Source of the DNA: Patescibacteria group bacterium
GTDB taxonomy: Bacteria > Patescibacteriota > Patescibacteriia > UBA2591 > JAQUPP01
Direction of reading: 5' to 3'
Length of the DNA stretch: 64,000 nt
Assembly: GCA_028716665.1 (NCBI GenBank)
Contig: JAQUPP010000001.1
Coordinates: 349,046-413,045, forward strand
Below, piece by piece: positions 1-57,334 of this stretch; position 1 is the first letter of the stretch; each line of letters begins with the position of its first letter. A program made the translations under genes and the position numbers. Below the pieces are notes generated by a model that saw only the letters and a list, made by a program, of their open reading frames with translations, was not told the DNA's origin and did not search any database.

Positions 1-3000
1 GTTGGTCATTCACAGGGCACATTTTACACCAATGAGTTATATAATTATCTGATAAACAATGGCATTCCTAAAGAATCAATCGCCGTGTACAATGTAGCCA
101 CACCGGCTGATTTCGTTGCGGGTAATGGTCTGTATCTTACCTCTCAAAACGATAAGGTTGTTAATAATGTTCGTAATGTCGCCAAAAACGTTAAGGCAAA
201 ACAACCACTTCCCCAAAACATTAACATTCCTTTAAACGAACAAAATGATCCCAAGGGTCATTCATTTAGCAGTGTTTATCTTAACAGTGCTCCTAAAAGA
301 ATAATATCAGAAATCAATAATGTTCTAAAAAATTTGGATAATACACAACAAGTAACCAACACTTCTGACTCCGGTTGTTTTAATTTACCGGATCAAAATT
401 TTTCTTATAAAACACAGAAATTAATTTATTTAGTTGCCGATCCTGTAAGCAATGGCATTGTAAAAGCAGGTGTTGTTACATACAATGGTGTTGCTTTTGC
501 CGGCAATGTTTTATCTACCGGCGTGGCGGTTGTTTTAGATCCGATTTTTAATCTTTTTCAGAAAAAAACCGTCGCCAATATTCATAATTTTCAAGCGTTG
601 ATTGGCGGAATTGGCCAATTATTTAATAGACAAGATGGAGATTCTCCATCATCGCTTCAAGAATTATCAGAACAACAATCTCAACAGCTCGAAGATGCTT
701 TAAATGAATTGCAAAATTCAAAAAATTTAATTACTGAACCGATTAATTCAGAAGAACAATCAGAATCATTAAACCAAGAAGATATTGAACAAAATCAAGA
801 ATTGGAAAAACCTCAAGAAGAAATAGAAAAAGATAAAGAACTGGAAGAAGAAAAAATACCCGAGTCACAATACTTTGCCAGCGACGTGGTGATTAATGAA
901 TTAATACCTAATCCAGCAGATGATCAGAACGAATTAATTGAATTATATAATCGTACTGATAAATCCATAGATTTAACTAACTGGACAATTGAAGATAATA
1001 CTGCTCATCCTAAAAATTTAAAAGGAAAAATTATTTCCAGCCATAGTTGGTTGGCGCTTAATGGAGGCAATGATTTTTCTTTTCAATTAAATAATTCAGG
1101 GGATACAACTATTTTAAAATATAACGGAAATTTAATTGATCAGATTGGTTATGGTGATTTTAATGATGGCAATATCCATGATAACCCTGATACACCCTCA
1201 AAAGGAGAATCTTTAATTCGTTATCCTGACGGTCAAGATAAAAATCAAGACGATCAGGATTTTTTAATCACCGCGACTCCAACTCCCGGTTTGGCTAATC
1301 TTTTTACTGAACAGGTGGTTCTAATTTCTAAAACACTAAACCCTGATAAGACGATTAATAATATTTCTTATCAGTCTTTCCAATCTCAAGACGTGGTAAT
1401 TAATGAAATTGCTTGGGCGGGCACTAAAGCCGACTCCACTGATGAATGGATCGAATTTTATAATAATTTGGACAAACCGATTAGTTTGGCCGGTTGGCGA
1501 TTAAAAGCGGCTGATGGCTCTCCGAATATATTATTAACAGGTGAAATTTCGGCTCACGGTTATTGGTTGTTGGAGAGAACAGATGATGAGGTAATTAAAA
1601 ATATTTCCGCCGATCAAATTTACAGCGGAGTATTAGAAGATTCCGGTGAAACCTTGGAATTAATTGATGGAAATGGTAATCGTATTGATTTTATCAATCA
1701 AGAAAATGGTTGGTTGGGCGGCGGCAACGAGACAAAAGCTTCAATGGAAAGAATTAATTCTACCCTAACAGGTGTTGATACTAATAATTGGCAAACCAAT
1801 AATGGACAAAATTTTTTATGGTTTGACGCCAAATATAATCAAATTTTAGGTACGCCTAAATATAAAAATAGCCAACAAGTTGTTAAAGCACAAGACCAAC
1901 ATGACAAATCTTATTTATCATATAAGGCGCTAGACGTGGTGATTAATGAGATTGATTGGACGGGAACCAAGGCGGACACCAATGACGAATGGATCGAACT
2001 TTATAATAATTTGGATCAAGAAATTGATTTATCCGGTTGGACATTAAAAGCCGAAGATGGTTCGCCTGATATTGTTCTCTCGGGTAAAATAGCGGGGAGG
2101 GATTTTTTTATTTTAGAAAGAACAGATGATGAAGCAATTAAAAATGTCACTGCTGATCAAATTTACAGCGGAGTTCTGGGAAATTCAGGGGAAGATTTGG
2201 AATTGAGAGATAAAAATAATAATTTAATTGACGAAGTTGATTGTACTGATGGTTGGTTTTTTGGCGATAATACCACTAAAGCGACAATGGAAAGGATAGA
2301 TTCTTTAGTTTCTGGTAGCTTAAAAGATAATTGGCAAACCGCTTATTTTCAGGATCAAACCGCTCAAGATACAAAAAATAATTTAATTTTTGGCAGTCCT
2401 AAAAATAAAAACACGGGAAAGCCAGAAGGGAATACTAAAGATACAATTCCGCCGGAAATTAAGTTAACTCAAAAACCGGCAACATCAACTAATTTGACTA
2501 TAGCTAATTTTGAGTTTTCTATTAACGAAGAGGGAAATTTTCTTTGTAAAATTGACGATCAAAATTTAGAATCTTGTTCGTCACCGAAAATTTATTCAAA
2601 TCTCGCCGAAGGAAATCACATTTTTTATATTAAAGCGGTTGATCAGGCAGATAATTTTTCAGAAATAACTTATTCTTGGACTATTGATTTAACCGGATTA
2701 ATTTCTTCTCCAACTACTTCTGGTATTTTTAATTTTTCAACTTGGCCTAATCAAATCAATGGAATCGCCTCGTCAAATGTCAGCTCTACTGATTTGTTGT
2801 TGGTAGAAGTTAAAATTCAAAATAAATCAGAAAATAAATATTTAGGTTATACTACTTCTACTATAGGTTGGATTGATGAACCGACCTGGCTGGAAACAGT
2901 TTTAAATGAAAATAACTGGCATTTTGATTTGCCGGTTTCTTTATTGACCGAATTACCAGATGGTTTATATTCTATTTCTTCTCAAGCTACTGATTTGGTT

Positions 3001-5688
3001 GGTAATATTCAAAATACAACTTCCACGACTGAATTTATTTTTGATTCTATTTCACCGGAAAAAATTAATAATTTAAAAACAGAGAATTTAGGCGGACTAA
3101 ATTTAAAACTTTCTTGGGATAAGGCTATTGATAATTTATCGGGAATAGATCATTATGAAGTCAATTGGGGGCACAATATTATATCTACGATTGCTAATCA
3201 TCTTGAATTAAATGTTGAGGACGGGGAAGAATGTAATTTCCAAGTTAGAGTAATAGATAGAGCAGGTAATTCAGGAGATTGGTCAGAACCGATTTCATAT
3301 TTTATTAAATTGCCTTCAGTGGTAATTAGTGAAGTTCAAATTACCGGTCAGACAGTTAACGATGAATTTATTGAACTTTATAATCCAACAGAAGCCCCAA
3401 TTGATTTAACTGGTTATATTTTAAAAAAGAAAACTAGTGGTGGTAGCGAAAGTAACTTGATAGTTAATAGTCGATTCGTAGATAAAATTATTCAGCCTAA
3501 AGGTTTCCTATTGTTGGTGCCAGAAGAAAATTATTTAGGATCAGTAACACCAGATATTCGTTGGCCTAAAAGTTATTCTTTAGCCCCAGCTAATACTTTA
3601 ATTCTTTATAATCCAGAAGAAAAAATTATTGATAAGGTTGGTTGGGGGCAAGCAATAGATTTTGAAACCGTTGCAGCGTCAGAGCCAATAGTAGCTAGTC
3701 AATCAATTGAAAGAAATAATTTTCAAGATACAGATAATAATTTTAATGATTTTATTGTTCAGGCGATTCCAAGTCCAATAAGCTCAAAAGGACTATGGTT
3801 AAACGGTTGGCAAAAAAGAAAATTATTAGTGATTGACAATACTCAAAATAATAATGATTTAATTGATTTCGAGATTAATATAGGGATTGACTATGAGTCC
3901 GAAATGAATCATGACTTTTCTGATATCCGTTTTACCGATTCTGATAAGACAACTCTTTTGAATTACGGTTGGGATATTAATGACGACGGCACTGACCAAA
4001 AACAAAATGAATATTCCGCTACGGCAGTAGTTAAAATTCCTTTTATCCCAAAACGCGCTCAAAAAATTATTTATCTTTATTATGATAATCCTTCAGCCTT
4101 ACCAGTCGCCAATTTAGAAACGACTCTTACTTGGTTTGATCATTTTACAACCGATAGAAGCAGTGAATATGAAAATTTTAATATTGAATGGGATACAACC
4201 GATTCAGCAATTTATGCTCATTATGGCTGGGCGGCAAAAATATATCCGAAAGATTTAAATATCAAAAATGCTTTAATTAAAACAAAATTTTATCAAAATG
4301 ACGGTGGTTATTTTGAGGATAGATATATGGGGCTTGAATATAGATATATAGATGATAATAATTTATTTAGGATAAGTGGTAGGTCAGAAATTAATTATGA
4401 TGATCCGCTGAGCAAGGGAATTAGGTGGGAGAAAATAATAAATGGAACTAAAACTTTAAAAAAATTAGATGACAACGCCGACGTTATTAGGAAAGAATGG
4501 CAAAACATTACAATATCTTCTTATGAAGGTGAACATAATATTCAATGGAAAAGTGCTAATTGGGATTTAAGTTGGTCTGATATTGAAAATCAACAAAATG
4601 TAGCCGGTAATATTGGTATTTGGTTTTGGAAATATAATCCTGGTGGTTGTCCAACTCCAAAAGCCGATTATTTTTATATTCGCCAAAATACAAAATCTTG
4701 GCCAACTGTTTTTGAGGTCGCAGAAAATTATCAGCCGATTATTTTAGGGAATACTCCATATTTAGAAATTCCGGGTTGGGAAAAAAGAAAAGAAATAATT
4801 ATTACTAATAATAATACTAAAGATTTAGTTAATTTTGAAGTCAACGTAAATATTTCTCATGATTCTGTAATGAATCCTGATTTTTCTGACATCCGTTTTA
4901 CCGATTCTGATAAGACAACTCTTTTGAATTACGGTTGGGATATTAATGACGACGGCACTGACCAAAAACAAAATGAATATTCCGCTACGGCAGTAGTTAA
5001 AATTCCTTTAATACCTGCTTCTTCTGAAACAAAAATTTATATGTATTATGGAAATAAATCTGCGTCGACTGTCGCCAATTTAGAAACCACTCTTACTTGG
5101 TTTGATCATTTTAAGACTGATAGAAGTAGTGAATATGAGGTTTTTAATATGCTTTGGAATACTTCTAATTCACAAATTGTTTCTCATTATGGTTGGGCTA
5201 ATTCAATATATCCTAAAAATTTAAACATTAAAGACGCAATTATTAAAACGTATTATCAATTAGGTGGCGGGGGTCAATTTGAAGATAGACAAATAGGGCT
5301 TCAATATCGTTATACAGATGATAATAATTTTTGGAGAATTTATGGTGAAGGTCCGAGAAATTATAATCCACCAGAAAAAGGAATATATTGGAAAAGGGTA
5401 ATAAGTGGGAGCTATACTATAAAAAATTCAGATATTAGTCAGTGGTTCTCACAATCACAATGGCATAATTTAAAAATAACTCTTTTAGATATTAATCATC
5501 ACATAGAATGGTTAGGGGAAACTATAAATGAAAATTGGTCAGATATTGATACTTATCAGAATGTGGCGGGCAGGGTAATGATTTGGTTTGGAAAATTAAT
5601 TCCAGGAGGATGCCCGGATGCTTATGCGGATTATTTTTATATCCGCCAAAATGCGTCAGTAATGCCAACAGTAAGTTTTGAAGAATAA
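1..5688 (+). CDS. Giant secreted/surface protein, 5'-truncated by the window edge. Frame 1 is open from nt 1, so the listed ORF start at 85 is not the true start. Architecture: N-terminal lipase-type GHSQG nucleophile elbow; a Q/E-rich linker; four lamin-tail domains (repeated VVINEI.W.GTKAD..DEWIE.YN); Ig-like and FN3-like modules; two tandem DUF2341 + concanavalin-A-like lectin modules at the C-terminus.
   Basis: There is no stop codon in frame 1 from nt 1 to 5688, and translation of nt 1-84 gives VGHSQGTFY (a GxSxG serine-hydrolase motif). The lamin-tail signature recurs at about aa 258, 424, 607 and 1085. The DUF2341 signature DFSDIRFTDSDKTTLLNYGWDI...IYLYYDN/IYMYYGN occurs twice. Composition is Asn/Thr/Ser-rich. 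Confidence 0.8.
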   Translation, partial: VGHSQGTFYTNELYNYLINNGIPKESIAVYNVATPADFVAGNGLYLTSQNDKVVNNVRNVAKNVKAKQPLPQNINIPLNEQNDPKGHSFSSVYLNSAPKRIISEINNVLKNLDNTQQVTNTSDSGCFNLPDQNFSYKTQKLIYLVADPVSNGIVKAGVVTYNGVAFAGNVLSTGVAVVLDPIFNLFQKKTVANIHNFQALIGGIGQLFNRQDGDSPSSLQELSEQQSQQLEDALNELQNSKNLITEPINSEEQSESLNQEDIEQNQELEKPQEEIEKDKELEEEKIPESQYFASDVVINELIPNPADDQNELIELYNRTDKSIDLTNWTIEDNTAHPKNLKGKIISSHSWLALNGGNDFSFQLNNSGDTTILKYNGNLIDQIGYGDFNDGNIHDNPDTPSKGESLIRYPDGQDKNQDDQDFLITATPTPGLANLFTEQVVLISKTLNPDKTINNISYQSFQSQDVVINEIAWAGTKADSTDEWIEFYNNLDKPISLAGWRLKAADGSPNILLTGEISAHGYWLLERTDDEVIKNISADQIYSGVLEDSGETLELIDGNGNRIDFINQENGWLGGGNETKASMERINSTLTGVDTNNWQTNNGQNFLWFDAKYNQILGTPKYKNSQQVVKAQDQHDKSYLSYKALDVVINEIDWTGTKADTNDEWIELYNNLDQEIDLSGWTLKAEDGSPDIVLSGKIAGRDFFILERTDDEAIKNVTADQIYSGVLGNSGEDLELRDKNNNLIDEVDCTDGWFFGDNTTKATMERIDSLVSGSLKDNWQTAYFQDQTAQDTKNNLIFGSPKNKNTGKPEGNTKDTIPPEIKLTQKPATSTNLTIANFEFSINEEGNFLCKIDDQNLESCSSPKIYSNLAEGNHIFYIKAVDQADNFSEITYSWTIDLTGLISSPTTSGIFNFSTWPNQINGIASSNVSSTDLLLVEVKIQNKSENKYLGYTTSTIGWIDEPTWLETVLNENNWHFDLPVSLLTELPDGLYSISSQATDLVGNIQNTTSTTEFIFDSISPEKINNLKTENLGGLNLKLSWDKAIDNLSGIDHYEVNWGHNIISTIANHLELNVEDGEECNFQVRVIDRAGNSGDWSEPISYFIKLPSVVISEVQITGQTVNDEFIELYNPTEAPIDLTGYILKKKTSGGSESNLIVNSRFVDKIIQPKGFLLLVPEENYLGSVTPDIRWPKSYSLAPANTLILYNPEEKIIDKVGWGQAIDFETVAASEPIVASQSIERNNFQDTDNNFNDFIVQAIPSPISSKGLWLNGWQKRKLLVIDNTQNNNDLIDFEINIGIDYESEMNHDFSDIRFTDSDKTTLLNYGWDINDDGTDQKQNEYSATAVVKIPFIPKRAQKIIYLYYDNPSALPVANLETTLTWFDHFTTDRSSEYENFNIEWDTTDSAIYAHYGWAAKIYPKDLNIKNALIKTKFYQNDGGYFEDRYMGLEYRYIDDNNLFRISGRSEINYDDPLSKGIRWEKIINGTKTLKKLDDNADVIRKEWQNITISSYEGEHNIQWKSANWDLSWSDIENQQNVAGNIGIWFWKYNPGGCPTPKADYFYIRQNTKSWPTVFEVAENYQPIILGNTPYLEIPGWEKRKEIIITNNNTKDLVNFEVNVNISHDSVMNPDFSDIRFTDSDKTTLLNYGWDINDDGTDQKQNEYSATAVVKIPLIPASSETKIYMYYGNKSASTVANLETTLTWFDHFKTDRSSEYEVFNMLWNTSNSQIVSHYGWANSIYPKNLNIKDAIIKTYYQLGGGGQFEDRQIGLQYRYTDDNNFWRIYGEGPRNYNPPEKGIYWKRVISGSYTIKNSDISQWFSQSQWHNLKITLLDINHHIEWLGETINENWSDIDTYQNVAGRVMIWFGKLIPGGCPDAYADYFYIRQNASVMPTVSFEE

Positions 5689-5823: not shown

Positions 5824-7470
5824 ATGTTAAGGAATAGAGCGGGGAGAGAGTTAGGTCTCTCCCACTATATAATCTTACTCGCTCGGAAATTCAAAAATTT
5901 CATTTTTGATTTCCTTACTCGCTTCGATTATAAAAAAATATTTTTAGCCGGCATTATTTTGATTTTTGCCATTTTTCTGTTTTTAAGATTTTATAATTTA
6001 TTGGCTCTGCCCATTTTTAATGACGAGGCGATTTATTTAAATTGGGCCAAAGACATTCATTCTAATTGGTCGGAAAATAAATTTACTTCTCTTGTGAGTA
6101 TTGGCGGAAAGCCACCACTGCACTATTGGATTTTAGCCATGGGTTATCATTGGTTTAGGGATCCGCTTTATTCCGGTCGATTTATCTCCATTCTTGCGGC
6201 TATTTTGAGTTTTTGGGGCGTATTTTTGCTGACACAGAAGATTTTTCATTCAAAATTAACCACCCTAATCGCTCTCAGTCTTTACACTTTTTGTCCGTTT
6301 GTTTTGCTTTATGAAAGGATGGCTCTGGCGGATGTTTTTATTTCCATGATTGTGATTTATATTTTTTATTTCAGTTGGCTGATTCTTTTAGAAATAGAAA
6401 AAAATAAAAGACCCCAAAATTTGCAATGGATTTGGCTGGTAATAATTTTGGGGCTTCTTTTTACTCTAGGCCGTTTGTTTAAACAAACGATTTTTATTTT
6501 TATTTTAGTCATGGGATTAATCTTGCTTTGGAGTATTTTAAAAAATAAATTTCAATTTAAAAAAACTTTTTTTCTTGCTTTAGAATTTATTTTGGCTTAT
6601 GCGTTAAGTGAACTGATTTGCCGTTTAATTATTCCGACTAAACTTTTAGCCGGAAGTAATTTTCTTACCAGTTTTTTTATTTTTAATTTTAAAGAATTCT
6701 CAGGATCATTTTTAGACGGTTGGTTTAAAAACTTGAGAATAATAGGAGAAGTTTTTATCAAATATTTTACATGGCCGATTTTAGCAGTTTTTATAATCGG
6801 CTGTTTTAGAAATAAATTTTGGCGAGAATTGAAAATTCAATGGCTGATATTTTTAATTTTTTTGCCTTTGATAATTTTTATTTTAATATCCAATATTTTT
6901 TATCCGCGTTATTTTCTTTTTATTGCGCCATTTTTAATTATTTTAATCGCTTTTTTCATCGCCAACCTCGGACAAGATTTGGCAAGATTTAGATATTTCA
7001 AGACAACTGTTTGTTTATTGCTTTTTCTATTAATTCTTTTGCCGTCTTTTTATCAAGATTATCAACTTTTAAAAAATCCGTTAAAATTTAATTGGGCTAA
7101 AATTGATGATGACTTTGTTAATCAGTGGAGCTCGGGCTATGCCATAACCAATGTGGGCGATTATTTGGTCAAAAATAGTACAAACGATCAACTTATTTTT
7201 TTGGACACATCTTTGGGTTATCCATTTGCTTATTTATATTTATACGAAGAAAAATTGCCCCATTTAAAGTTGGCTCAAATAAATTTTAATTTGGCCGAAT
7301 ATGTAGAAATTGCCCGAAAAACAGAATCTGTTAAACCGATTTTTATTTTATTAAATCCTGATCGGCGGCCAGAAGATAGAGAATTTGAAAAAAGCGATAT
7401 CTGTCAAAATCAAAAAAAATTTTACCAACCGAATAATATTAGTCACTACACACTTTGTTTCATTGATTGA
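5824..7470 (+). CDS. Glycosyltransferase family 39 / ArnT-PMT-like polytopic membrane protein (GT-C fold).
   Basis: More than 10 predicted TM helices. A DE motif sits in the first extracytoplasmic loop (PIFNDEAIYLNW), followed by YHWFRDPLYSGRF and a large C-terminal soluble domain, which is typical of PMT_2/ArnT-like transferases. Confidence 0.65.
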   Translation: MLRNRAGRELGLSHYIILLARKFKNFIFDFLTRFDYKKIFLAGIILIFAIFLFLRFYNLLALPIFNDEAIYLNWAKDIHSNWSENKFTSLVSIGGKPPLHYWILAMGYHWFRDPLYSGRFISILAAILSFWGVFLLTQKIFHSKLTTLIALSLYTFCPFVLLYERMALADVFISMIVIYIFYFSWLILLEIEKNKRPQNLQWIWLVIILGLLFTLGRLFKQTIFIFILVMGLILLWSILKNKFQFKKTFFLALEFILAYALSELICRLIIPTKLLAGSNFLTSFFIFNFKEFSGSFLDGWFKNLRIIGEVFIKYFTWPILAVFIIGCFRNKFWRELKIQWLIFLIFLPLIIFILISNIFYPRYFLFIAPFLIILIAFFIANLGQDLARFRYFKTTVCLLLFLLILLPSFYQDYQLLKNPLKFNWAKIDDDFVNQWSSGYAITNVGDYLVKNSTNDQLIFLDTSLGYPFAYLYLYEEKLPHLKLAQINFNLAEYVEIARKTESVKPIFILLNPDRRPEDREFEKSDICQNQKKFYQPNNISHYTLCFID

Positions 7471-7539: not shown

Positions 7540-9651
7540 ATGAGTAATATGAAGAAAAAAGAACTGAAGAAATCAAAAGAAAAACTTAATTTTTCATCTT
7601 TATCGCCGACGCGTCGGCTGGTTTTGGCCATAGTTTTGTTTACTTTGGCCATTATTTTATTATTGGGATTATGCGGTTTAGCCGGAGTGGCGGGCGAACT
7701 CTTGTCTGTCGGCCTTAAAATTATCTTGGGCTGGGCGAGTTGGACAATTCCAATTGCTTTGGCGATTGTCGGAATAATGTGCCTTAATCATGAAAAAATT
7801 CAGGAGATTTATCCTAAAAGACCTTTTGGGATAAGATTGGCCGGATTATTTTTCTCAGTTATTATGTTGGCGGCCATTTTTCATATTCATTTTGTGGATA
7901 ATAAATTAGCCCTTGCGGCCTACAAAGGAGGCGGATATATCGGTTATGGAATAGGTTATGTGATTGTTAACACATTTGGAATTTGGGCGAGCTGGGTGAT
8001 TTTCGTCTGCGCTTTCGCAATTGGCGGAATTATCGCTTTTTCAAATTTAAAGAAAAAATTATCAAAAGAAGAATTGGAAGCGGAAGCGGAAAAAAAGAAA
8101 GAAAATCTTGCTCAGGCGGGTTTTCAAAGTTTGAAGGCGATTCTGGCCAAAAAAGATAAATTGGTTTTAAAACCTGATAATGAAAAAAATAAAATTTTAG
8201 AAAAAACTGAAGACAATTTAAAATTGTCCAAAGGAATTGCCGGTTTTGGTTCAACAAAAATTCGTCCCAAGATTGAACTGCCTTTGGATTTATTGGATTC
8301 CAGTTCTGAGAAACCCAATTCAGGGGATATAAAAAATAATAAATTGATTATTCAAAAAACTTTGGAAAGTTTTGGCATTCCGGTGGAAATGGGAGAAGTG
8401 AAAACCGGTCCGACGGTCACTCAATATACTTTAAAACCGGCTGATGGCGTAAAAATTTCGCAAATTACGGGCTTGCAGAATGATTTGGCTTTGGCCCTAG
8501 CCGCTCATCCGATTAGAATTGAAGCGCCGATTCCGGGTCAATCTTTGGTTGGAATTGAAATACCGAACAAGCAAAAAGCAGTTGTCAGATTAAGAGAAGT
8601 TTTTGAGAGCGCTGAGTTTAGAAAAAATAAAACGAATTTATCGTTAGCCATAGGCAAAGATGTGGCGGGCGATATATGGTTTGGAGACTTGGGAAAAATG
8701 CCGCACTTGTTGGTGGCCGGTTCAACCGGAAGCGGAAAAACCGTAATGCTTAATTCGGTTATCGTAAATTTGATTTATCAAAATACTCCCGAAGATTTGA
8801 AATTTATTTTCATTGATCCAAAAAGAGTGGAACTTACTTTATATAATGACTTGCCTCATTTGTTGACGCCGGTTATCACCGATGTTAATAAAACCATTAA
8901 CGCTTTAAAATGGTCAATCAAAGAAATGGAGCGACGTTTTGAAGTGATGAGTCAGGCTCAAAAAAGAGATATCTTTGCTTACAATAAAGATGCCAAAACA
9001 AAAATGCCGTTTATCGTGGTGGTGATTGACGAATTGGCTGATTTAATGATCACTTCGCCACAGGAAGTCGAAGCTTGCATTATCAGGCTGTCTCAGATGG
9101 CCAGGGCGACCGGAATTCACTTAATAATGGCCACCCAGCGTCCGTCAGTGGATATTATCACCGGTTTGATCAAGGCCAATATTACTTCCAGAATAGCTTT
9201 CTCAGTGGCCTCAATGACTGATTCAAGAACAATTTTGGATTTCTCAGGCGCGGAAAAATTATTGGGCCGCGGCGACATGTTGTTTATTTCATCGGAATTA
9301 TCCAAACCAAAAAGATTGCAAGGTGCTTATGTCTCAGATGAAGAAATCAAAAGAATTGTTGAATATTTAAGAAATGTCGCCAAACCGGAATATCAAGATG
9401 AAATTGTTGCGCCTCCGCAAAACGAATCGGGAAATAATTTAAGCGATTTAGTGGAAGATGAAATGCTGTCAGACGCCAGAGAAGTGGTTATTCAAGCCGG
9501 CAAGGCCTCTGCTTCGCTTTTACAAAGAAGATTGAGAATCGGTTATGCCAGAGCGGCGAGATTATTGGATTTATTGGAAGAAGAAGAAACAATCGGACCC
9601 GGTGAAGGAGCCAAGCCGAGAGATGTTTACAAGAAAATGCCTAATGACTAA
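7540..9651 (+). CDS. ftsK: DNA translocase FtsK/SpoIIIE. It has N-terminal TM helices, a motor domain with a Walker A motif, and a C-terminal winged-helix gamma domain. The start could equally be the in-frame ATG at 7549.
   Basis: LLVAGSTGSGKTVMLNS (Walker A), IDELADL, and LLQRRLRIGYARAARLLDLLEEE (gamma domain). Confidence 0.93.
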   Translation: MSNMKKKELKKSKEKLNFSSLSPTRRLVLAIVLFTLAIILLLGLCGLAGVAGELLSVGLKIILGWASWTIPIALAIVGIMCLNHEKIQEIYPKRPFGIRLAGLFFSVIMLAAIFHIHFVDNKLALAAYKGGGYIGYGIGYVIVNTFGIWASWVIFVCAFAIGGIIAFSNLKKKLSKEELEAEAEKKKENLAQAGFQSLKAILAKKDKLVLKPDNEKNKILEKTEDNLKLSKGIAGFGSTKIRPKIELPLDLLDSSSEKPNSGDIKNNKLIIQKTLESFGIPVEMGEVKTGPTVTQYTLKPADGVKISQITGLQNDLALALAAHPIRIEAPIPGQSLVGIEIPNKQKAVVRLREVFESAEFRKNKTNLSLAIGKDVAGDIWFGDLGKMPHLLVAGSTGSGKTVMLNSVIVNLIYQNTPEDLKFIFIDPKRVELTLYNDLPHLLTPVITDVNKTINALKWSIKEMERRFEVMSQAQKRDIFAYNKDAKTKMPFIVVVIDELADLMITSPQEVEACIIRLSQMARATGIHLIMATQRPSVDIITGLIKANITSRIAFSVASMTDSRTILDFSGAEKLLGRGDMLFISSELSKPKRLQGAYVSDEEIKRIVEYLRNVAKPEYQDEIVAPPQNESGNNLSDLVEDEMLSDAREVVIQAGKASASLLQRRLRIGYARAARLLDLLEEEETIGPGEGAKPRDVYKKMPND

Positions 9652-9667
9652 TTTCTAATTTCTAATC
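9648..9667. repeat. Left inverted repeat CTAATTTCTAATTTCTAATC (two TTTCTAAT units) flanking the four-helix-bundle gene. It overlaps the ftsK stop codon.
   Basis: Read directly from the sequence. Its reverse complement matches 10066-10094 on the other side of the ORF. Confidence 0.75.
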
Positions 9668-9690
9668 AAATCCCAATAACTAATGTTCAA

Positions 9691-10047
9691 ATGGCTAAAA
9701 ACAAATACGATTTAGAAGAAAGAACAGCAAAATTTGGCGAAGAAATCATTAAGTTTGCTAAGAAAATTCCAGAAAATGCGGTTAATAAACCTTTAATACC
9801 GCAATTAGTTAGAGCAGGAACTAGCGTAGGAGCAAATTATTGTGAAGCTGATAATGCTGAATCTAAAAAGGATTTTAAACACAAAATTGGAATTTGCAAA
9901 AAAGAATCAAGAGAAACCAAACATTGGTTGAGAATAATAGTTATTGCTGCGCCCGAACTAAAGGAAGAGGCAAGAATTTTATGGCAAGAAGCAAAAGAAT
10001 TAAATTTGATTTTTAATGCCATTGTTCATTCAATAAACAATAAATGA
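9691..10047 (+). CDS. Four-helix-bundle protein of the 23S rRNA intervening-sequence protein family (PF05635 / TIGR02436-like).
   Basis: 118 aa. Shows the characteristic N-terminal YDLEERTAKFGEEIIKF, then RAGTSVGANYCEA and KKDFKHKIGICKKESRETKHWLRI. Confidence 0.8.
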   Translation: MAKNKYDLEERTAKFGEEIIKFAKKIPENAVNKPLIPQLVRAGTSVGANYCEADNAESKKDFKHKIGICKKESRETKHWLRIIVIAAPELKEEARILWQEAKELNLIFNAIVHSINNK

Positions 10048-10065
10048 TTTGGTTATTAGACATTG

Positions 10066-10094
10066 ATTAGAAATTAGGTCAATTAGAAATTAGA
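10066..10094. repeat. Right inverted repeat GATTAGAAATTAGGTCAATTAGAAATTAGAT (two ATTAGAAATTAG units), the reverse complement of the left repeat.
   Basis: The 12-mer ATTAGAAATTAG occurs at 10067-10078 and 10082-10093. Its reverse complement is CTAATTTCTAAT, which is present at 9648-9659. Confidence 0.75.
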
Positions 10095-10104
10095 TATTTT
10101 TTTT

Positions 10105-10776
10105 ATGGCTTTTAGAACTCAATCCATTAAATTTGAAAGTTTGGGCACCATTTTGCGCGATAAAAGAATATCAGAAAGTTGGAGCTTGGAAGATGTTGAA
10201 AAAAAAATAGGCGTGCCGGCTAAATATTTACAATGCATAGAAGAAGACGAATTTTATAAATTGCCCAGTCCGACTTACACCAGAGGATTTTTATTGCAAT
10301 ATGCCGAATTATTGAGATTTAATCCGGAGGAAGTTGTTAATTTGTGGAAAAAAGAATATTCTTATTCGGCTATAAAAGAAACAAAAAACAAGAGAGTCAG
10401 AAAGTTGCCCTTGGTTGAATTCGGCAAAGAAAAATTTTTTGATATTTTCAATTCAAGATATTTTTTTATAGGTTTGGTTTCGTTGGGAGTTCTTCTTTAT
10501 CTTTTTTTCGGTATAAAAAAATTAATGTTTCCGCCGGAGATTCAGCTTTTTTCGCCCAGAACAAATTTGGTTACTCAAGAAACTGCCTTGGTGATTGAAG
10601 GGAAGGTGGGCGAAGGAGTGGATGTATTTATTAACAAGCAAAAGATTGAAGATATGACAGATAATTATTTTAAGGTGAAATTGGAACTTGAGAGAGGCAT
10701 AAATAATATTGAAATTTCGGCCAAAAAGAAATATTCAAGAGAACGAATCATTAAGCGCCAAATTATTGTAGAATAA
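10105..10776 (+). CDS. RodZ-like cytoskeleton/morphogenesis protein with an XRE-type HTH, one TM helix and a DUF4115-like C-terminal domain.
   Basis: N-terminal [46 protein letters not shown] (RodZ signature), TM segment [18 protein letters not shown], and a beta-rich C-terminus. Confidence 0.6.
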
Positions 10777-11780: not shown

Positions 11781-11802
11781 AATTAATAATTTAAAATAAT
11801 AT

Positions 11803-12828: not shown

Positions 12829-12863
12829 GCAAATAAGCTTACCAAGAAATAAGTTAAATAAAT

Positions 12864-12900
12864 AAAAATATCCGGGATTAACCGGATATTTTTATTTATT
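12864..12900. terminator. Bidirectional rho-independent terminator between convergent recA and the Wzz-like gene. Perfect 12-bp stem AAAAATATCCGG/CCGGATATTTTT, loop GATTAA, and a T-tract.
   Basis: Inverted repeat 12864-12875 / 12882-12893 followed by TTTATTTATTTT. T/A runs are present on both strands. Confidence 0.75.
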
Positions 12901-12915
12901 TTGTCTATTTTTTAT

Positions 12916-48648: not shown

Positions 48649-50916
48649 TTGATTAAAAATATGTCTAAAATATCAGAAAAAATTTGTCTGACCATTATCC
48701 ACTATGGATCTTATTTGATTTTATTTTTGCCGCTTTTAGTTTATCAATATACTTTATATCCTTATATTTTCGGCAAAATTATATTTTTCAGGATTTTAGT
48801 GGAAATTATTTTTGCCGCTTGGTTGTTTTTGGCTATTTATAATAAAAATTATCGACCTGATTGGAAAAATCCTTTGGTTTTCAGCTTAACCGCATTCATG
48901 GGTGTTTTGGTTCTAACAATGTTTACGGGTATTGATATCTCGCGTTCTTTTTGGTCAACCCAAGAAAGGATGACTGGTGTTTTAACCCTGCTTCATTTTT
49001 GGGCATGGTTTTTAACTTTAACCAGTTGTTTTAAAAAGTGGCAAGATTGGCGAAAATTAATTTGGGCAAGTTTGATTTGTTCTTTTTTGGTCGGACTCTA
49101 CGGATTGGGGCAAAAAATAGGGTTAAAATTTTTATTACAGAATGATGGTGCTTCGCGCATGGCCGCAACTTTGGGTAATTCTATTTTTTTGGCAGTTTAT
49201 GCCATGTTGCATATTTTTTTAGCCGGTTCTCTAATAATTTTAGAAAAAGTAAAATTGGGGAAAATTTTTTCTTTTTTGATTTTACTCCTTAATTTTGGGA
49301 TCATGCTTTGGGCTGCTAGTCGCGGAGTCTTAGGAGCTTTTGGTTTGTCATTTTTATTATTATTGAGTTATCTAATATTTACTCTGCGAACCAAAAGATT
49401 AAAATTAATTTTCATTCCAATTTTTATTTTATTGATTTTAATTTTAGTCGGCGGAGTATTTTTTTGCCAAACTCAAAAAGGAAAACTTTGGACTGTTAAA
49501 GCCCCGGTTTTTATCCATAGAATAGTTTATTTGACTGGCGGTGTCGAAGAACGAACTATTGCTTGGAATGCCGGTTGGCAAAGTTTTAAAGAAAAACCGA
49601 TTTTGGGTTGGGGTTGGGAAAATTATAATATAATTTTCAACAAGTACTATAATCCTTATTATTTAAGTTTAGGCCAGGGAAATACCTGGTTTGATCGTTC
49701 GCATAATCAAGTTGTGGATTTGTTGGCTTTAACCGGTGGTGTCGGTATAATGGCTTATTTAGCGGTGTTTGGAGTGATTTTTTGGTTATTATTACGGAAA
49801 CGCAATACAAATAAATATAAGATTTGTGGGGTGTTATTTGCTTGCATGTTTTTTGCGTATTTTATTCAGAATTTAACTGTTTTTGATACGCCGGCACCAC
49901 TTATTGTCTTTTATTTTAGTTTAGCTTTGGTCTATTTTATAACAACGAATAAGAATTTAGAAAAACCCGAAGCACGAAACTCAAAATTCGAAACAAATTT
50001 AAAACTCAAAAATCAAAATTCAAAATCAAATCAGCTTCCGCTCCCGATTTTTATTTTTCTAATTATTATTTTTTTGCCGTGGTCAATTTATAAATTTAAT
50101 CTTGAGCCTTTTATTCAGAGTAAGGCGGCGGTAGTCGGTATTTCCGCTTCCAGGGTTGATTTAAAAGCAGGTCTTGATTGGTATAAAAAATCTTTGGATA
50201 AATCGGTTTTTACCAATCCGGAAATCAGAACGCAGTTGGCCAAGACTATTGTTGAATTTCCGGGCCAATCAAATCTTGATCCGATGATTTTGCAAAATGG
50301 TACGGATTTTGTAATTAAAGAATTTGAAAAAAGTATTCAAGAACATCCTCGCGATGTGAGAAATTATTTATATTTAGGTCAGTTGTATAATTTAGGTTCA
50401 AAATATAATAAAACATATCTTGATAGAGCGGAAGAAATTTTAAAAAAAGCGACAGGGCTCTCACCAAAACGCCAGCAAGTTTATTTTGAATTAGGCAGAA
50501 CTCATCTTTATAAAAAAGAATACGAAAAATCAGCTAACACTATTCAAGAAGCGGTTAATTTTGACAATAAAATAGGGGAGTCATATTGGAATTTAGCCAC
50601 AACCTATTTAATTTGGGGGAAAAATCAGGAAGCTGCTGCGGCAATAAATAAAGCATACGGAGAATTACATTATTATAAAGAAGGCATGGATTTTAATATT
50701 GCTCGGGCTTATGCCGAAATTAAAGATTTTGAAAATGCTTTTATATTTTGTGGTAAGATTGTCGATCAACAATCGGATAATTTAACTTCTCAATTGGGTT
50801 GCGCTTTGATTTACGCCAAAGGCGGTAATCAAGGAATGGCTGAAAAAATTTTTGATGAAATAGAAAATAAAAATCCGCAAGCGGTTCAGCAGGTTAGGCA
50901 ATTATTGGAACAATAA
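48649..50916 (+). CDS. O-antigen ligase / Wzy_C-domain polytopic membrane protein fused to C-terminal TPR repeats.
   Basis: About 12 TM helices and a Wzy_C-like core (LLLNFGIMLWAASRGVLGAFGLSF). A low-complexity linker (KFETNLKLKNQNSKSNQ) is followed by TPR-like repeats (YLYLGQLYNLGSKYN..., YFELGRTHLYKKEYEKS...). Confidence 0.65.
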   Translation: MIKNMSKISEKICLTIIHYGSYLILFLPLLVYQYTLYPYIFGKIIFFRILVEIIFAAWLFLAIYNKNYRPDWKNPLVFSLTAFMGVLVLTMFTGIDISRSFWSTQERMTGVLTLLHFWAWFLTLTSCFKKWQDWRKLIWASLICSFLVGLYGLGQKIGLKFLLQNDGASRMAATLGNSIFLAVYAMLHIFLAGSLIILEKVKLGKIFSFLILLLNFGIMLWAASRGVLGAFGLSFLLLLSYLIFTLRTKRLKLIFIPIFILLILILVGGVFFCQTQKGKLWTVKAPVFIHRIVYLTGGVEERTIAWNAGWQSFKEKPILGWGWENYNIIFNKYYNPYYLSLGQGNTWFDRSHNQVVDLLALTGGVGIMAYLAVFGVIFWLLLRKRNTNKYKICGVLFACMFFAYFIQNLTVFDTPAPLIVFYFSLALVYFITTNKNLEKPEARNSKFETNLKLKNQNSKSNQLPLPIFIFLIIIFLPWSIYKFNLEPFIQSKAAVVGISASRVDLKAGLDWYKKSLDKSVFTNPEIRTQLAKTIVEFPGQSNLDPMILQNGTDFVIKEFEKSIQEHPRDVRNYLYLGQLYNLGSKYNKTYLDRAEEILKKATGLSPKRQQVYFELGRTHLYKKEYEKSANTIQEAVNFDNKIGESYWNLATTYLIWGKNQEAAAAINKAYGELHYYKEGMDFNIARAYAEIKDFENAFIFCGKIVDQQSDNLTSQLGCALIYAKGGNQGMAEKIFDEIENKNPQAVQQVRQLLEQ

Positions 50917-52245: not shown

Positions 52246-53526
52246 ATGTCAAAAATTACATCAATCAGAGCTTGCGAAATTTTAGATTCAAGGGGTAATC
52301 CGACTCTTGAAGTTAGGGTTGTTTTGGAAAATGGTTTGGAATCCAAAGCAGCGGTTCCTTCCGGGGCTTCAACCGGCGTTCACGAAGCGCTTGAATTAAG
52401 AGATAATAATTCAAATCGTTATGGCGGTAAGGGCGTACTCAAGGCTTGTGAAAATGTGGAAAAAATAATCGCTCCGGCTTTAATCGGTTTAGAACTAAAT
52501 CCTCAAGAAATTGACAAATTAATGATAGATTTAGACGGAACGCCAAATAAAAGCAAGTTGGGCGCTAATGCCATTTTGGGAGTTTCTTTGGCTTGTACTC
52601 GGGCCGGCGCTAAATCGCAAAATATTCCTTTATACAAATATATTCGCGAAACTTATCAGCTTACCAACTTATTGACTTATCAACTTCCTATTCCAATGCT
52701 TAATGTAATCAATGGTGGAAGACATGCTGATAATAAATTAGATATTCAAGAATTTATGATCGTGCCCTTGGCTGATAGTCTTAAAAATCAACCCAATAAA
52801 TTATTTAAAGAAAGAATAAGATTGAGCGCGGAATTTTTTCAAATTCTTAAAAATATTATTAAAAGCACTTATGGTTTTTCAATAGCCGTGGGAGATGAGG
52901 GCGGTTTTGCTCCAAGTTTTAAAAACAACGAAGAAGTTCTAAAAGTTTTAATGTCCGCGGCTCAAGAAGCAAAATTAAAAATCGGTCAGGATATAGTTTT
53001 TGCTTTAGACGCGGCGGCTTCCGAATTTTATGATGTTAAAGAAAAAAAATATATTTTTGAAAATAAAAAATTGTCGTCTCAAGACATGATTGATTTATAT
53101 CAAACTTGGATTGAAAAATATCCGATTATTTCCATTGAAGACGGTTTATCAGAAGATGACTGGTCGGGCTGGAGAGATCTTCACGCGCGTTTGCAAAAAA
53201 TCATGATTATTGGTGATGATTTATTTACTACTAACATTGATCATTTGAAAAAGGGTATTGAAGAAAGAGCGGCAAACTCTATTTTAATCAAACCAAATCA
53301 AATTGGCACTTTAACCGAAACGATAAATTGCATTAAATTTGCCCAGGCGAATAATTATAAGGTTGTTATTTCTCATCGTTCAGGGGAAACAAGTGATGAT
53401 TTTATTTCCGATTTGGCCGTGGCCGTTAACGCCGATTTTATCAAAGCAGGCGCGCCAAACAGAGGAGAAAGAGTGGTAAAATATAATCGATTAATGGAAA
53501 TTGAAGAAGAATTATATCAAATTTAA
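52246..53526 (+). CDS. eno: Enolase.
   Basis: ILDSRGNPTLEV, SGASTGVHEALELRD, IKPNQIGTLTET, SHRSGETSD. Confidence 0.95.
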   Translation: MSKITSIRACEILDSRGNPTLEVRVVLENGLESKAAVPSGASTGVHEALELRDNNSNRYGGKGVLKACENVEKIIAPALIGLELNPQEIDKLMIDLDGTPNKSKLGANAILGVSLACTRAGAKSQNIPLYKYIRETYQLTNLLTYQLPIPMLNVINGGRHADNKLDIQEFMIVPLADSLKNQPNKLFKERIRLSAEFFQILKNIIKSTYGFSIAVGDEGGFAPSFKNNEEVLKVLMSAAQEAKLKIGQDIVFALDAAASEFYDVKEKKYIFENKKLSSQDMIDLYQTWIEKYPIISIEDGLSEDDWSGWRDLHARLQKIMIIGDDLFTTNIDHLKKGIEERAANSILIKPNQIGTLTETINCIKFAQANNYKVVISHRSGETSDDFISDLAVAVNADFIKAGAPNRGERVVKYNRLMEIEEELYQI

Positions 53527-53632
53527 AATTGAAAAATCAAAATGGAAAATGACAAATTAAAATGTAAAATTTTTAATTTTGATATTTAAATTTTGATTTA
53601 AACATAACGAAAAAATTAATGAATTATATTGT

Positions 53633-55210
53633 ATGAAAAAAAATATTGATAAAGTTAATCCAGCTATTTTTATAGTTCTCGATGGCTGGGGAGTAGCGCC
53701 GGAAAGCAAAGGCAATGCCGTTACTCTGGCTAATACGCCCAATTTTAATCATTACAAAGAAAAATATCCCTATACCGAAGTTTGCGCTTTTGGAGAATGT
53801 GTTGGTTTGCCCAAAAATCAACCCGGAAATTCAGAGGCCGGTCATTTGAATTTGGGCGCCGGACGAGCTGTCAAAGATGACGCGGTTTATATTTCCGAGA
53901 GCATTAAAGATGAAACATTCTTTAAAAATCCGGCTTTTTTGGAAGGAATTTCGCATCTCAAAAAATATAAATCAAAGATTCATTTGATAGGTTTGGTGAC
54001 AGAGGAAAATAGTGCTCATTCTTCACCGGAACATTGGTTGGCAATGTTAAAACTTTTAGAAGAACAAAAAGTTGAAGAAGTATTTTTGCATCTTTTTACT
54101 GATGGTCGTGATTCTTCACAGCATGCAGCTATTCGTCTGGTAGAAAGATTTGAACAAAAAATAAATCATGATAATCATCATTTAAAAGTTAATATCGCTA
54201 GTATCTCAGGAAGATTTTATGCCATGGACAGGACTAAACAATGGGACAGGGTTGAGAAGGTTTACAATCTTTTGGTTTTGGGTAAAGGATTTCAAGCCCC
54301 AAATCCCAAAGAAGCGATTGTTCAGGCTTACAATCGACAAGAAACAGATGAATTTATTTTGCCGACCATTATCAAAAAAGATCATCAACCAACAGCCACT
54401 ATTGACGACAATGATTTGGTTATTTTTATGAATCTGAGATCAGACCGAGCCCGTGAATTAAGTAAAGCTTTTGTTCAAAAAGAATTCAATCAAAAAAATC
54501 CAGGTTCATTTAAAAGACAAAAATGGCCGAAAAATTTGTTTTTTGTCGCTTTGGCCGATTTCGGTCCTGACTTGGATCATATTAGAACCGCTTATCCCAG
54601 TAGAATAGTAAAGAATAGTTTGCCGGTAATTATAGATGGTTCACCGCAGCTTTATATCACTGAAACTGAAAAATTCGCTCATGTCACTTTTTTCTTCAAT
54701 GGCGGTTATGATCATTCCGTATCAGGGGAAGAAAGAATAATTGTCCCGTCACCGGATGTTTCTCATTACGATTTGACACCAGAAATGAGCGCGCGAAGAA
54801 TAACAAAAATAGTTTTGGGAAAAATTAAAAATGAAACATTTTCTTTTATTATGATGAATCTTTGTAATCCCGATATGATTGGTCATACCGGTAATTTACA
54901 AGCAACAGTGAAAGGGATAGAATGTGTTGATGAAAGTTTGGGGAAAATAATCAAGGCGGGTAAAAAACACGGTTATTCGATTATTGTTACAGCCGATCAC
55001 GGCAATGCTGAAGAAATGATTAATCTAAAAACCGGAGAAGTGGATACAAAACATTCCATTAATCCTGTTCCGTTTATTTTAATTAACTCTGCTTACAAAG
55101 GTAAAAAATTAAGAAAAGACGGCGTTTTGGCCGATGTGGCGCCAACTATTTTAGAATTAATGGGTCTTAAAAAATCAGAAGAAATGACAGGTGTTAGCTT
55201 GCTAAAATAG
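53633..55210 (+). CDS. gpmI: 2,3-bisphosphoglycerate-independent phosphoglycerate mutase, copy 1.
   Basis: LDGWG, GNSEAGHLNLGAGR (phospho-Ser region), ADHGN. Confidence 0.9.
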   Translation: MKKNIDKVNPAIFIVLDGWGVAPESKGNAVTLANTPNFNHYKEKYPYTEVCAFGECVGLPKNQPGNSEAGHLNLGAGRAVKDDAVYISESIKDETFFKNPAFLEGISHLKKYKSKIHLIGLVTEENSAHSSPEHWLAMLKLLEEQKVEEVFLHLFTDGRDSSQHAAIRLVERFEQKINHDNHHLKVNIASISGRFYAMDRTKQWDRVEKVYNLLVLGKGFQAPNPKEAIVQAYNRQETDEFILPTIIKKDHQPTATIDDNDLVIFMNLRSDRARELSKAFVQKEFNQKNPGSFKRQKWPKNLFFVALADFGPDLDHIRTAYPSRIVKNSLPVIIDGSPQLYITETEKFAHVTFFFNGGYDHSVSGEERIIVPSPDVSHYDLTPEMSARRITKIVLGKIKNETFSFIMMNLCNPDMIGHTGNLQATVKGIECVDESLGKIIKAGKKHGYSIIVTADHGNAEEMINLKTGEVDTKHSINPVPFILINSAYKGKKLRKDGVLADVAPTILELMGLKKSEEMTGVSLLK

Positions 55211-56839: not shown

Positions 56840-57229
56840 ATGGAAATAAAGTATTTTTTTCAAAATATTACTCTCTCCGGAGAATTGAAAGATTATCTGG
56901 AAGAAAAAGTTAAAAAATTAAATCGTTTTTCCGACAAAATTTGGGAGGCGAAAATTGATTTAAGTTTTAATGACAGTCACGCTAAGTCGGAAGCTTTCAG
57001 ATTGGAATTGGCTTTGAAAATGCCGGATAGATTATTGGAAGCTTCAGTTCGCGCGGCTAATATTCAAGAAGCCATAGATAAAGTTGAAGAAAAAATCAGA
57101 AAACAATTAGAGCATTATCGGGGTATTCGCGAATCTAAAAAACGTTTGATTAATAAATTTGTCAGAGGCACGAAAGCGATTTCTTCCTTATTTTTTAAAA
57201 AGGGAGAAGAGAATGAAGACGAAGAATAG
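56840..57229 (+). CDS. hpf: Ribosome hibernation-promoting factor (RaiA/HPF, ribosomal S30AE family).
   Basis: MEIKYFFQNITLSGELKDYLEEKVKKLNRF...IDLSF, with the S30AE fold pattern and an acidic C-terminal tail. Confidence 0.8.
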   Translation: MEIKYFFQNITLSGELKDYLEEKVKKLNRFSDKIWEAKIDLSFNDSHAKSEAFRLELALKMPDRLLEASVRAANIQEAIDKVEEKIRKQLEHYRGIRESKKRLINKFVRGTKAISSLFFKKGEENEDEE

Positions 57230-57241
57230 AAGCAGTTTAAT

Positions 57242-57333
57242 ATAGTTTCTGGTTATTAGTTTTAGTTTATTGGTTTTTTGTTTTTAACTAATAACTGAAT
57301 AACCATAACTATCAACTAAAAACCATAAACTAT
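57242..57333 (+). promoter_or_regulatory. Long imperfect inverted repeat spanning the hpf-secA intergenic region (20-bp outer stem with 2 mismatches, and an inner inverted repeat). Its 3' arm ends 1 nt before the secA ATG.
   Basis: Left arm ATAGTTTCTGGTTATTAGTT (57242-57261) against right arm AACTAAAAACCATAAACTAT (57314-57333). The inner pair is GGTTATTAGTT / AACTAATAAC. There is no Shine-Dalgarno sequence upstream of secA. Confidence 0.45.
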
Positions 57334-57334
57334 T

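Follow-up and report, generated by a model that had tools for sequence, protein, structure and literature searches.

Intervening sequences (IVSs) that carry an open reading frame (ORF) are known from the 23S rRNA genes of Leptospira, Coxiella burnetii and Haemophilus, where a long terminal stem encloses in its loop an ORF of the S23p family (PF05635). In the Coxiella IVS, three tandem GACAGAT heptamers are located directly upstream of the S23p ATG, and RNase III cuts at the first of them (PMC4990558). ORFs of the same family, named 23S_rRNA_IVP, were described within insertions of the 16S and 23S rRNA genes of bacteria of the candidate phyla radiation (CPR) (PMC11270868) and also in cas loci (PMC3936711). 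Here, a PF05635 gene is described that lies between two protein-coding genes of cell division, ftsK and a rodZ-like gene, in a 64,000-nt stretch of the genome of a Patescibacteria group bacterium (GCA_028716665.1, contig JAQUPP010000001.1, positions 349,046 to 413,045, forward strand). This whole stretch is referred to as the window. The gene is enclosed by inverted arms of short tandem repeats, and gene and arms together are called the cassette. With the ORF-bearing IVSs the cassette has in common the protein family, the size class (428 nt in Coxiella, ∼466 nt here), the position of the ORF in the stem loop, tandem heptamers directly before the start codon (CTAATTT in place of GACAGAT), a sporadic distribution among relatives and, presumably, the reliance on host transcription. 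It differs in that the IVSs are part of rRNA, where cutting fragments the 23S molecule, whereas cutting of the cassette would separate two cistrons. The favoured reading, to which a probability of about 0.65 is assigned, is that of an active or recently active, promoter-less selfish cassette that has the design of an ORF-bearing rRNA IVS and sits in the spacer of an mRNA operon.

Tandem heptamers are also known outside rRNA genes. The short tandemly repeated repetitive (STRR) sequences, the GGGAATC repeats and the TAACTGA repeats of Beggiatoaceae, Cyanobacteria and Bacteroidetes resemble the cassette arms in that they are intergenic, often arranged as convergent pairs and often end at start codons. 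In Xanthomonas campestris, the GGGAATC heptamer occurs at 186 loci of the genome, 70 convergent pairs included, and one array of four units starts 6 nt past bccP and overlaps the start codon of XCC0516 (PMC4692102, supplementary table). XCC0516 is the PF05635 protein of PDB entry 2GSC, a Xanthomonas link that rests on this supplementary table. TAACTGA arrays are located upstream of start codons, and translational regulation was proposed for them (PMC4679880). The PF05635 family is mentioned in neither of the two studies, the published descriptions of heptamer repeats make no tie to this family or to IVS elements, and no paper linking PF05635 to flanking tandem repeats outside rRNA was found in the literature searched.

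Filled and empty sites at the ftsK-rodZ junction

The 118-aa ORF could be assigned to PF05635 (E 5.3e-15, 56 bits, cutoff 33.8) and to TIGR02436 (75.6 bits, cutoff 24), and its neighbours could be identified by their domains (Table 1), in agreement with a preliminary description of the window made from the letters alone. The same description had reported inverted repeats that overlap the ftsK stop codon. These are real, but their extent had to be corrected, as the left arm begins at ∼9634 and not at 9648, the 3' arm begins at the stop codon of the ORF itself, and five units are present on each side. The terminal inverted repeat of the cassette is AAAATGCCTAAT ... ATTAGATATTTT. Two exact copies of the 12-mer CTAATTTCTAAT are present (9648 and 9655), as are two of its reverse complement (10066 and 10082), and the rest of the 64 kb contains neither. 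The stop codon of ftsK (9649-9651) falls within a repeat unit, and the CTAAT units supply TAA stops in all three frames (9642, 9649 and 9656), one of which is the ftsK stop. Stops in three frames would limit the damage where an insertion clips a gene end.

Between the arms (9631-9689 and 10045-10103) 49 bp could be formed at -38.7 kcal/mol, compared to -14.6 ± 3.6 kcal/mol for shuffled arms (z = -6.6), and the terminal stem was kept when the whole 481-nt stretch was folded (z = -3.5). The best ungapped inverted repeat at the cassette scored 15, whereas 30 window positions with matching geometry, used as controls, averaged 7.2 and reached 9 at most. The long stem with the ORF in its loop that had been predicted beforehand was thus recovered, and it matches the layout of a bona fide 23S IVS. 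No match was obtained within the cassette in a promoter search of the + strand, and the eight-T run 3' of the stem is peculiar to the window copy and not a trait of the family. Therefore, a promoter or terminator belonging to the cassette itself was rejected.

With the last 324 aa of FtsK as query, 80 loci were retrieved from metagenomes. In two of these, L084 and L099 (FtsK 98-100% identical on the amino acid level, flanks collinear), the rodZ ATG follows 7-8 nt past the ftsK stop (...GGAGGAAATAGAGTAAAATATTATGG) and no cassette is present. The flanks of these two loci and of a third one, L083, are 85-93% (∼90%) identical to the window on the nucleotide level, and the cassette is absent from all three. 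It is also absent from ∼55 more distant ftsK-rodZ-recA loci, which makes gain the parsimonious direction. The homology between the window and its empty-site relatives ends at ∼9636. FtsK ends with ...DVYKKKEEIE* in these relatives and with ...DVYKKMPND* in the window, where the last four ftsK codons and the stop (∼9637-9651) are encoded by units of the left arm of the cassette. The GGAGG Shine-Dalgarno sequence of rodZ seen at the empty sites was lost in the window through the insertion. These comparisons show that ∼466 bp entered at the 3' end of ftsK and replaced ∼20 bp, comprising the last ftsK codons, the stop and the Shine-Dalgarno sequence of rodZ.

Filled ftsK-rodZ junctions were found in the window and in the loci L001 and L002. 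The cassette of L002, an ENA contig, is located at the same junction and shows 0 differences in 458 positions, whereas ftsK differs at 28 of 451 positions (6%; Fisher p = 2e-9). The last ftsK difference lies ∼10 nt from the junction, and the contig end coincides with the right arm. As the cassettes are identical despite the divergence of ftsK, the cassette is younger than the split of the two strains, and single insertions can be very recent. The left terminus of the cassette matches that of a 90% identical element in L175. P0002, the closest relative examined (90% identity), has the same left terminus (AAAATGACTAAT) in a different genomic context.

In L083 (FtsK 99% identical), the ftsK-rodZ site is occupied by an unrelated, ORF-less palindromic hairpin of 82 nt (4973-5054 of that locus; TTGGTTAAT... 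/ ...TAACTAATTAACCAA; -29 kcal/mol, z = -5.4). Close relatives thus show three allelic states of the ftsK-rodZ spacer, which is a hotspot. Between gmd and recA, L084 contains a different PF05635 cassette (6700-7320; 43% amino acid identity), the arms of which consist of AAATCCGAA/TTCGGATTT units; in the window (11781-11802), L083 and L099, a spacer of ∼22 nt is found there instead. On both sides of this second cassette a spacer-like copy of ∼20 nt is present (TTAACATTT(T)AATAT...), which may represent a long target duplication. Presence and absence thus differ at the same site between close genomes, as is expected of a transposable element. The empty sites, which the preliminary description had anticipated as ftsK directly followed by rodZ, and the inverted arms found throughout the family (see below) bear out its proposal of a portable, self-contained cassette.

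Three more observations concern other places in the window. A hairpin of ∼95 nt at 57230-57334 (ATAGTTTCTGGTTATTAG...CTAAAAACCATAAACTAT, -24.7 kcal/mol) resembles the hairpin type of L083 and takes up precisely the whole spacer that separates ORF 56840-57229 from the co-directional ORF 57335-60055. At 53527-53632, in the spacer between the ORFs 52246-53526 and 53633-55210, an A-rich heptamer array (AAATTGA, ∼7 units) and, after it, the inverted complement of the array make up a hairpin of lower stability (-13 kcal/mol). In frame inside a 755-aa ORF (48649-50916), a 65-nt stretch at 49963-50025 is 81% identical to the 5' arm of the second cassette of L084 (CCGAAGCACGAAA...CGAAACAAATT...), and it may be a solo arm that was absorbed into coding sequence.

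The genes around the cassette encode an LTD-domain surface protein, a PMT glycosyltransferase, FtsK, RodZ, a GDP-mannose dehydratase, RecA and Wzz. A giant 1867-aa ORF at 85-5688 with four Lamin-tail domains, DUF2341 and Big_13, whose product is probably a surface protein, is followed by the PMT-family glycosyltransferase gene at 5824-7470. Between the convergent recA and Wzz-like genes, a 32-nt inverted repeat (12844-12913; 84% complementary, 6-nt loop) looks like a bidirectional terminator. No Rfam RNA family, rRNA included, was detected in the window.

Table 1. Positions of the cassette, its parts and the two adjacent genes in the window.
Feature	Position	Strand	Description
ftsK	7540..9651	+	Pfam FtsK_SpoIIIE, alpha, gamma and 4TM domains
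5' arm	9631..9689	+	tandem CTAAT units with 7-nt period at 9641, 9648, 9655, 9662 and 9680; inner box CAAATCCCAAT at 9667-9677
Whole inserted cassette	9634..10099 (ends ± 5 nt; ∼466 bp)	+	absent from L083, L084 and L099
Four-helix-bundle ORF, 118 aa, S23p / 23S-rRNA-IVS protein / Avd-like family	9691..10047	+	PF05635, TIGR02436
3' arm	10045..10103	+	ATTAG units at 10055, 10066, 10073, 10082 and 10089, then eight-T run
RodZ-like gene	10105..10776	+	HTH_25; matches RodZ N-terminus; start just 3' of the cassette

Design of the cassette family and its protein

More than 7999 homologues of the 118-aa protein are present in public data, the closest being 74-99% identical. From species-representative genomes 352 relatives were obtained and 80 loci were kept, 76 of which had enough flanking sequence for an analysis of the arms. 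When the 100 nt upstream of the ORF were compared to the 100 nt downstream, an inverted-repeat score of at least 12 was reached in 79% of the 76 loci, compared to 0.3% of 2280 control positions. Inverted CTAAT/ATTAG arms are therefore conserved around homologous ORFs of different species, which answers the question of repeat conservation on which the preliminary description had made its proposal depend. In the conserved layout, the upstream stop is followed by AAATT, three to five units of CTAAT plus 2 or 4 nt, CAAATCCCA and the ATG of the ORF, and the stop of the ORF by TTGGGATTTG, three to five units of ATTAG plus 2 or 4 nt, AAATTT and the downstream ATG. The spacing of the units is bimodal, with 7 nt in 78 cases and 9 nt in 111. 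In Planctomycetota loci both arms change jointly to CGAAT/ATTCG or CCGAAAT units, and more divergent copies have TATCAAT, ATCCAAA or AAATCCGAA units. Arms and gene are thus shown to form one unit, which spans at least seven phyla.

The four-helix bundle is encoded by the sole ORF of the cassette. The upstream gene is located on the same strand in 77 of the 80 loci, and its stop usually lies 0-15 nt from the first unit or within it. For the downstream gene, the strand agrees in 65 of 74 loci, and the distance is often 5-20 nt. The 154 neighbour proteins fall into 131 clusters (for example LeuRS, MreB, 6PGD, DnaJ, an M48 peptidase and a ComM-like ATPase), without a conserved partner gene. The cassette design is shown to recur in hundreds of species and in unrelated operons, almost always co-directional and just past the upstream stop codon. 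An Rfam search of 15 homologous loci and a motif scan of all loci gave no ORF inside an rRNA gene. In L078 (520-882, 1176-1258 and 1650-2736), a close homologue with CCAAT-type arms immediately precedes a tRNA gene and the beginning of a 23S rRNA gene, and in L028 the cassette lies 20 nt past the end of a tRNA gene, so that the element also follows RNA genes.

The retrieved loci, 726 kb in total, yielded 21 hairpins that lack the ORF but have the same arms; they measure 44-182 nt, and several keep the CAAATCCCAATG box with a remnant of the start codon. All 21 have the 5' arm before the 3' arm and are again located between a stop codon and the next ATG. Families of mobile elements typically comprise autonomous and miniature forms in this way. 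In six loci (L051, L055, L032, L036, L049 and L082), a second 5' arm was observed just past the stop of the ORF, resulting in the order 5' arm, ORF, 5' arm (near-identical in L051 and L055) and 3' arm, as if an ORF-bearing unit and an ORF-less hairpin had been fused or nested.

The protein matches PDB entry 2RLD with E 3e-13. Its AlphaFold2 model (pLDDT 93) contains four helices at residues 8-24, 35-54, 59-86 and 88-117, and the best Foldseek matches were 2RLD and 2GSC (TM-score 0.78-0.86), followed by Avd (4DWL) and the ribonucleoprotein (RNP) of a diversity-generating retroelement (DGR; 8UB7). The sequence identity is 28% to the S23p structures and ∼15% to Avd. As 2RLD, 2GSC and 4DWL were each deposited with five chains, the cassette protein probably forms a pentameric ring and, by analogy with Avd, probably binds nucleic acid. 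The motif G/RxxRxxxSxxxNxxE, which is conserved in the 23S IVS protein family (Zhang et al., 2013; PMC3936711), is represented by R41, S45, N49 and E52 (LVRAGTSVGANYCEA). In a set of 35 diverse members, S45 never varies, and conservation reaches 90% or more at N49 and E52. For 400 homologue pairs, the nonsynonymous divergence (pN) was ∼0.20 and the median synonymous divergence (pS) ∼0.84, with saturated synonymous sites, so that the family is old and the protein functional. The ORF is intact and under purifying selection, and the cassette is not the relic mobile element that the preliminary description had considered.

Proposed mechanism and alternative explanations

The rRNA IVSs are located inside 23S or 16S rRNA, in helix 25 or helix 45, and the ftsK-rodZ junction is no such place. 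The enclosure of the ORF by terminal inverted repeats is shared with them, and it is found in the window and across the family. The cassette is therefore not an rRNA IVS in the strict sense, but its design and its protein are shared with that class. Under the favoured reading, the cassette would be transcribed by read-through from the host operon, and the arms of the transcript would pair to a stem of ∼50 bp with the start codon of the ORF at its top. Host RNase III would then cut the stem, as in the IVSs of Coxiella, Leptospira and Salmonella, and such cutting would allow insertions to be tolerated both at the tips of rRNA helices and between cistrons. The ring-shaped protein might recognise the tandem units, in cis and in trans on ORF-less copies, and could serve maintenance, spread or the fate of the RNA.

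Several observations weigh against this reading. The S23p protein of Coxiella is apparently not made and its ORF is decaying (PMC4990558), whereas the ORF of the cassette is intact and conserved. The window contains one copy only, as no second PF05635 gene or cassette was found in its 64 kb. No transposase, integrase, recombinase or reverse transcriptase was found to be tied to the cassette or to recur among the neighbours at the 80 loci. A consistent target-site duplication could not be identified either; at the window site ∼20 nt were replaced and none duplicated, and the palindromic AATT termini make it impossible to distinguish direct from inverted repeats. Mismatches between the arms show no preference for G:U-compatible pairs over A:C (183 vs 186; 26 vs 25 in a stringent set), and selection for pairing specifically at the RNA level is thus not demonstrated. 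Spacers and unit lengths are mirrored between the arms only loosely (0.78, null 0.68). What is conserved is the motif array with approximate complementarity, and repeats that act at the DNA level fit this equally well. The polar core of the protein (Q38, S45, N49, E52, E72, E75 and W79) is nearly constant across members whose repeat units vary widely, which argues against a simple sequence-specific recognition. The commonest number of units per arm is four and not five, a loose fit to a pentamer, and a model of five units for five subunits is not supported in that form.

An alternative is a host regulatory module, in which the protein would be a post-transcriptional regulator similar to TRAP and the arrays would be cis-regulatory sites near the start codons of its own and the downstream genes, controlling translation or mRNA stability, rather than mobile element termini. 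In most loci, 5-20 nt separate the arrays from the downstream start codon, the ATG of the ORF lies at the top of the stem, and a 5-nt core with variable spacers of 2-4 nt resembles an array of sites for a protein. Purifying selection acts on the cassette protein, which belongs to a family of RNA-binding scaffolds (Avd in the DGR RNP), and the translational regulation proposed for the TAACTGA arrays points in the same direction. TRAP itself offers a mechanistic analogy only: it is a ring-shaped homo-oligomer that faces tandem (G/U)AG cores with 2-3-nt spacers in leader RNA, but its fold is unrelated, the cassette has ∼4 units for 5 subunits, and the binding of the repeats by the cassette protein is a conjecture. 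A regulatory module is, however, difficult to reconcile with presence and absence among relatives of ∼90% nucleotide identity at a housekeeping locus, with identical cassettes in strains whose flanks have diverged, and with 131 unrelated neighbour clusters that have no functional theme. The insertion destroyed the Shine-Dalgarno sequence of rodZ and rewrote the tail of FtsK, and different cassettes occupy different spacers of one operon. These features are typical of selfish insertion and make a regulatory origin rather unlikely, although both readings could coexist if the element was co-opted.

Less likely still is a transposon acting at the DNA level in the manner of MITEs (miniature transposable elements with inverted repeats). 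The arrays would then be sites for a transposase encoded elsewhere, or hairpin substrates of a host enzyme acting on single-stranded DNA as in REPIN/RAYT systems, PF05635 would be a passenger, and RNA folding and RNase III would be irrelevant. The lack of a G:U bias in the arms, the common ORF-less copies, the conserved termini (AAATT...AATTT) and the hairpins of other types at the ftsK-rodZ site of L083 and in other spacers of the window agree with this explanation. However, in at least seven phyla the ORF is enclosed by the arms, whose unit differs from subfamily to subfamily, so that gene and arms travel and evolve jointly, unlike cargo. The 77:3 orientation bias of the ORF relative to the upstream gene indicates selection for its expression from host transcripts, and no candidate transposase recurs in the neighbourhoods.

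The comparison with described systems of this kind gives a similar picture. REPIN/RAYT systems also consist of a gene between inverted short repeats and many ORF-less intergenic hairpins, but the cassette protein is a 118-aa four-helix bundle without the HUH/Y1 motif, the arms are tandem arrays of 7- or 9-nt units and not a single palindromic REP, and the ORF-bearing cassettes are numerous and polymorphic, compared to one domesticated copy per genome. The Correia/NEMIS elements of Neisseria and the ERIC, BOX and RUP MITEs are likewise small, have inverted-repeat ends, are located between co-transcribed genes and form hairpins in mRNA. Hairpins of Correia elements are cut by RNase III. These elements encode nothing and have a defined TA duplication, whereas the cassette has a form with an ORF and no consistent duplication.

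A remnant of a DGR, or a stand-alone Avd, is very improbable. DGRs are common in CPR bacteria, and the fold is similar to that of Avd (4DWL, 8UB7), which serves as a pentameric nucleic-acid-binding scaffold in the RNP. The protein is, however, far closer to the S23p structures than to Avd, and no neighbour cluster, reverse transcriptase included, recurs at the 80 homologous loci. No reverse transcriptase is encoded within ∼9 kb on either side of the cassette, no search aimed at a pair of template and variable repeats having been made, and the DGR explanation is thereby effectively refuted for this locus.

Further candidates were rejected on their defining features. An integron gene cassette has a single 3' attC and an IntI integrase close by, whereas inspection shows arms on both sides of the ORF here and no integrase among the neighbours. 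The defining features of REPIN/RAYT elements and of defence genes are absent, and the 118-aa protein matched no family of the PADLOC anti-phage defence models. With regard to a phage vector, no relative was found on viral contigs. A chance inverted repeat beside an ordinary small gene, conceivable in a genome of 34% G+C in which short AT-rich repeats are frequent, is refuted by the z-score of the stem, by the recurrence of the arms in the family compared to controls and by the empty sites.

Heptamer arrays around distant homologues and their meaning

A tblastn search of plasmids of cultured bacteria gave 30 records, and 12 loci from Cyanobacteria, Chloroflexota, Spirochaetota, Bacillota and Bacteroidota were examined. 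Heptamer arrays flank the gene in all 12, with a clearly inverted orientation in ∼7 and complex or mostly direct arrays in the rest. In Nostoc punctiforme, GTCGGAG (four units) precedes the ORF and CTCCGAC (four to five units) follows it. Dolichospermum has GTAATTC and GAATTAC, each in four units, which results in a perfect inverted repeat of 33 nt. The ORF is flanked by AATCCCC and AATCGTA upstream and TACGATT downstream in Planktothrix, by TTTTAGA and TCTAAAA in Gloeocapsa, and by GAAGGAT and CATAATT in Chlorohelix, and in Monoglobus an inverted AATTAGGAATGAGGA-type repeat surrounds a decayed copy. More complex or mostly direct arrays were observed in Treponema, Pseudanabaena, Chondrinema, Bernardetia, Anabaena and at a second Chlorohelix locus. 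Distant homologues beyond the CPR, from six further phyla, use other heptamers. The GGGAATC array over the start of XCC0516 and the arrays around the PF05635 genes of Nostoc, Dolichospermum, Planktothrix and Gloeocapsa connect the described heptamer repeats with this family.

Most of the 12 plasmid loci have the gene in the same direction as its operon neighbours; the copy flanked by cas2 and cas1 runs antisense to the two genes. The gene is located between a helicase and a methyltransferase gene in L164, L167 and L168, between genes for DUF1156 and Swt1 HEPN proteins in L172 and L173, between hsdS and hsdR in L171, and at cas2/cas1 genes in L165 and L174, once between cas2 and cas1 and once next to cas1. 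Other plasmid contexts are RND adaptor and RND permease, beta-ketoacyl-ACP synthase III and M20 hydrolase, and DMT transporter and DUF4832. One Nostoc locus is found beside Tn7-like transposition genes and xisH/xisI. Nine of the 12 loci lie inside restriction-modification-like, defence or CRISPR adaptation operons, and the same context recurs across phyla, which could reflect co-transfer of islands, tolerance of insertions or a functional tie.

Much more tentatively, a broader class can be considered, in which PF05635 genes and inverted heptamer arrays (7-9-nt units) would constitute one widespread, unrecognised class of selfish hairpin elements with autonomous and miniature forms. Such a class would explain the ORF-bearing rRNA IVSs, the scattered four-helix-bundle genes in CRISPR, restriction-modification and housekeeping operons, and at least part of the STRR sequences of Cyanobacteria, the GGGAATC repeats of Xanthomonas and the TAACTGA repeats of Beggiatoaceae. 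The ring protein would read the units on single-stranded nucleic acid in a way similar to TRAP or Avd and drive spread or persistence without a canonical transposase, possibly via an RNA or a hairpin DNA intermediate. This possibility is consistent with all data gathered and does not depend on the window locus alone.

The window locus provides a clean comparison of filled and empty sites, according to which the cassette moves. In the streamlined genomes of CPR bacteria such insertions rewrite gene ends, as seen in the changed C-terminus of FtsK and the lost ribosome-binding site of rodZ. The four-helix-bundle genes in cas, restriction-modification and other operons are probably hitch-hikers and not components of these systems. 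The function of the S23p/IVS protein and the origin of the rRNA IVSs have been a puzzle since 1993, and the heptamer repeats of bacteria since 1990. The cassette family may link these two old puzzles, the intervening sequences of rRNA and the bacterial heptamer repeats.

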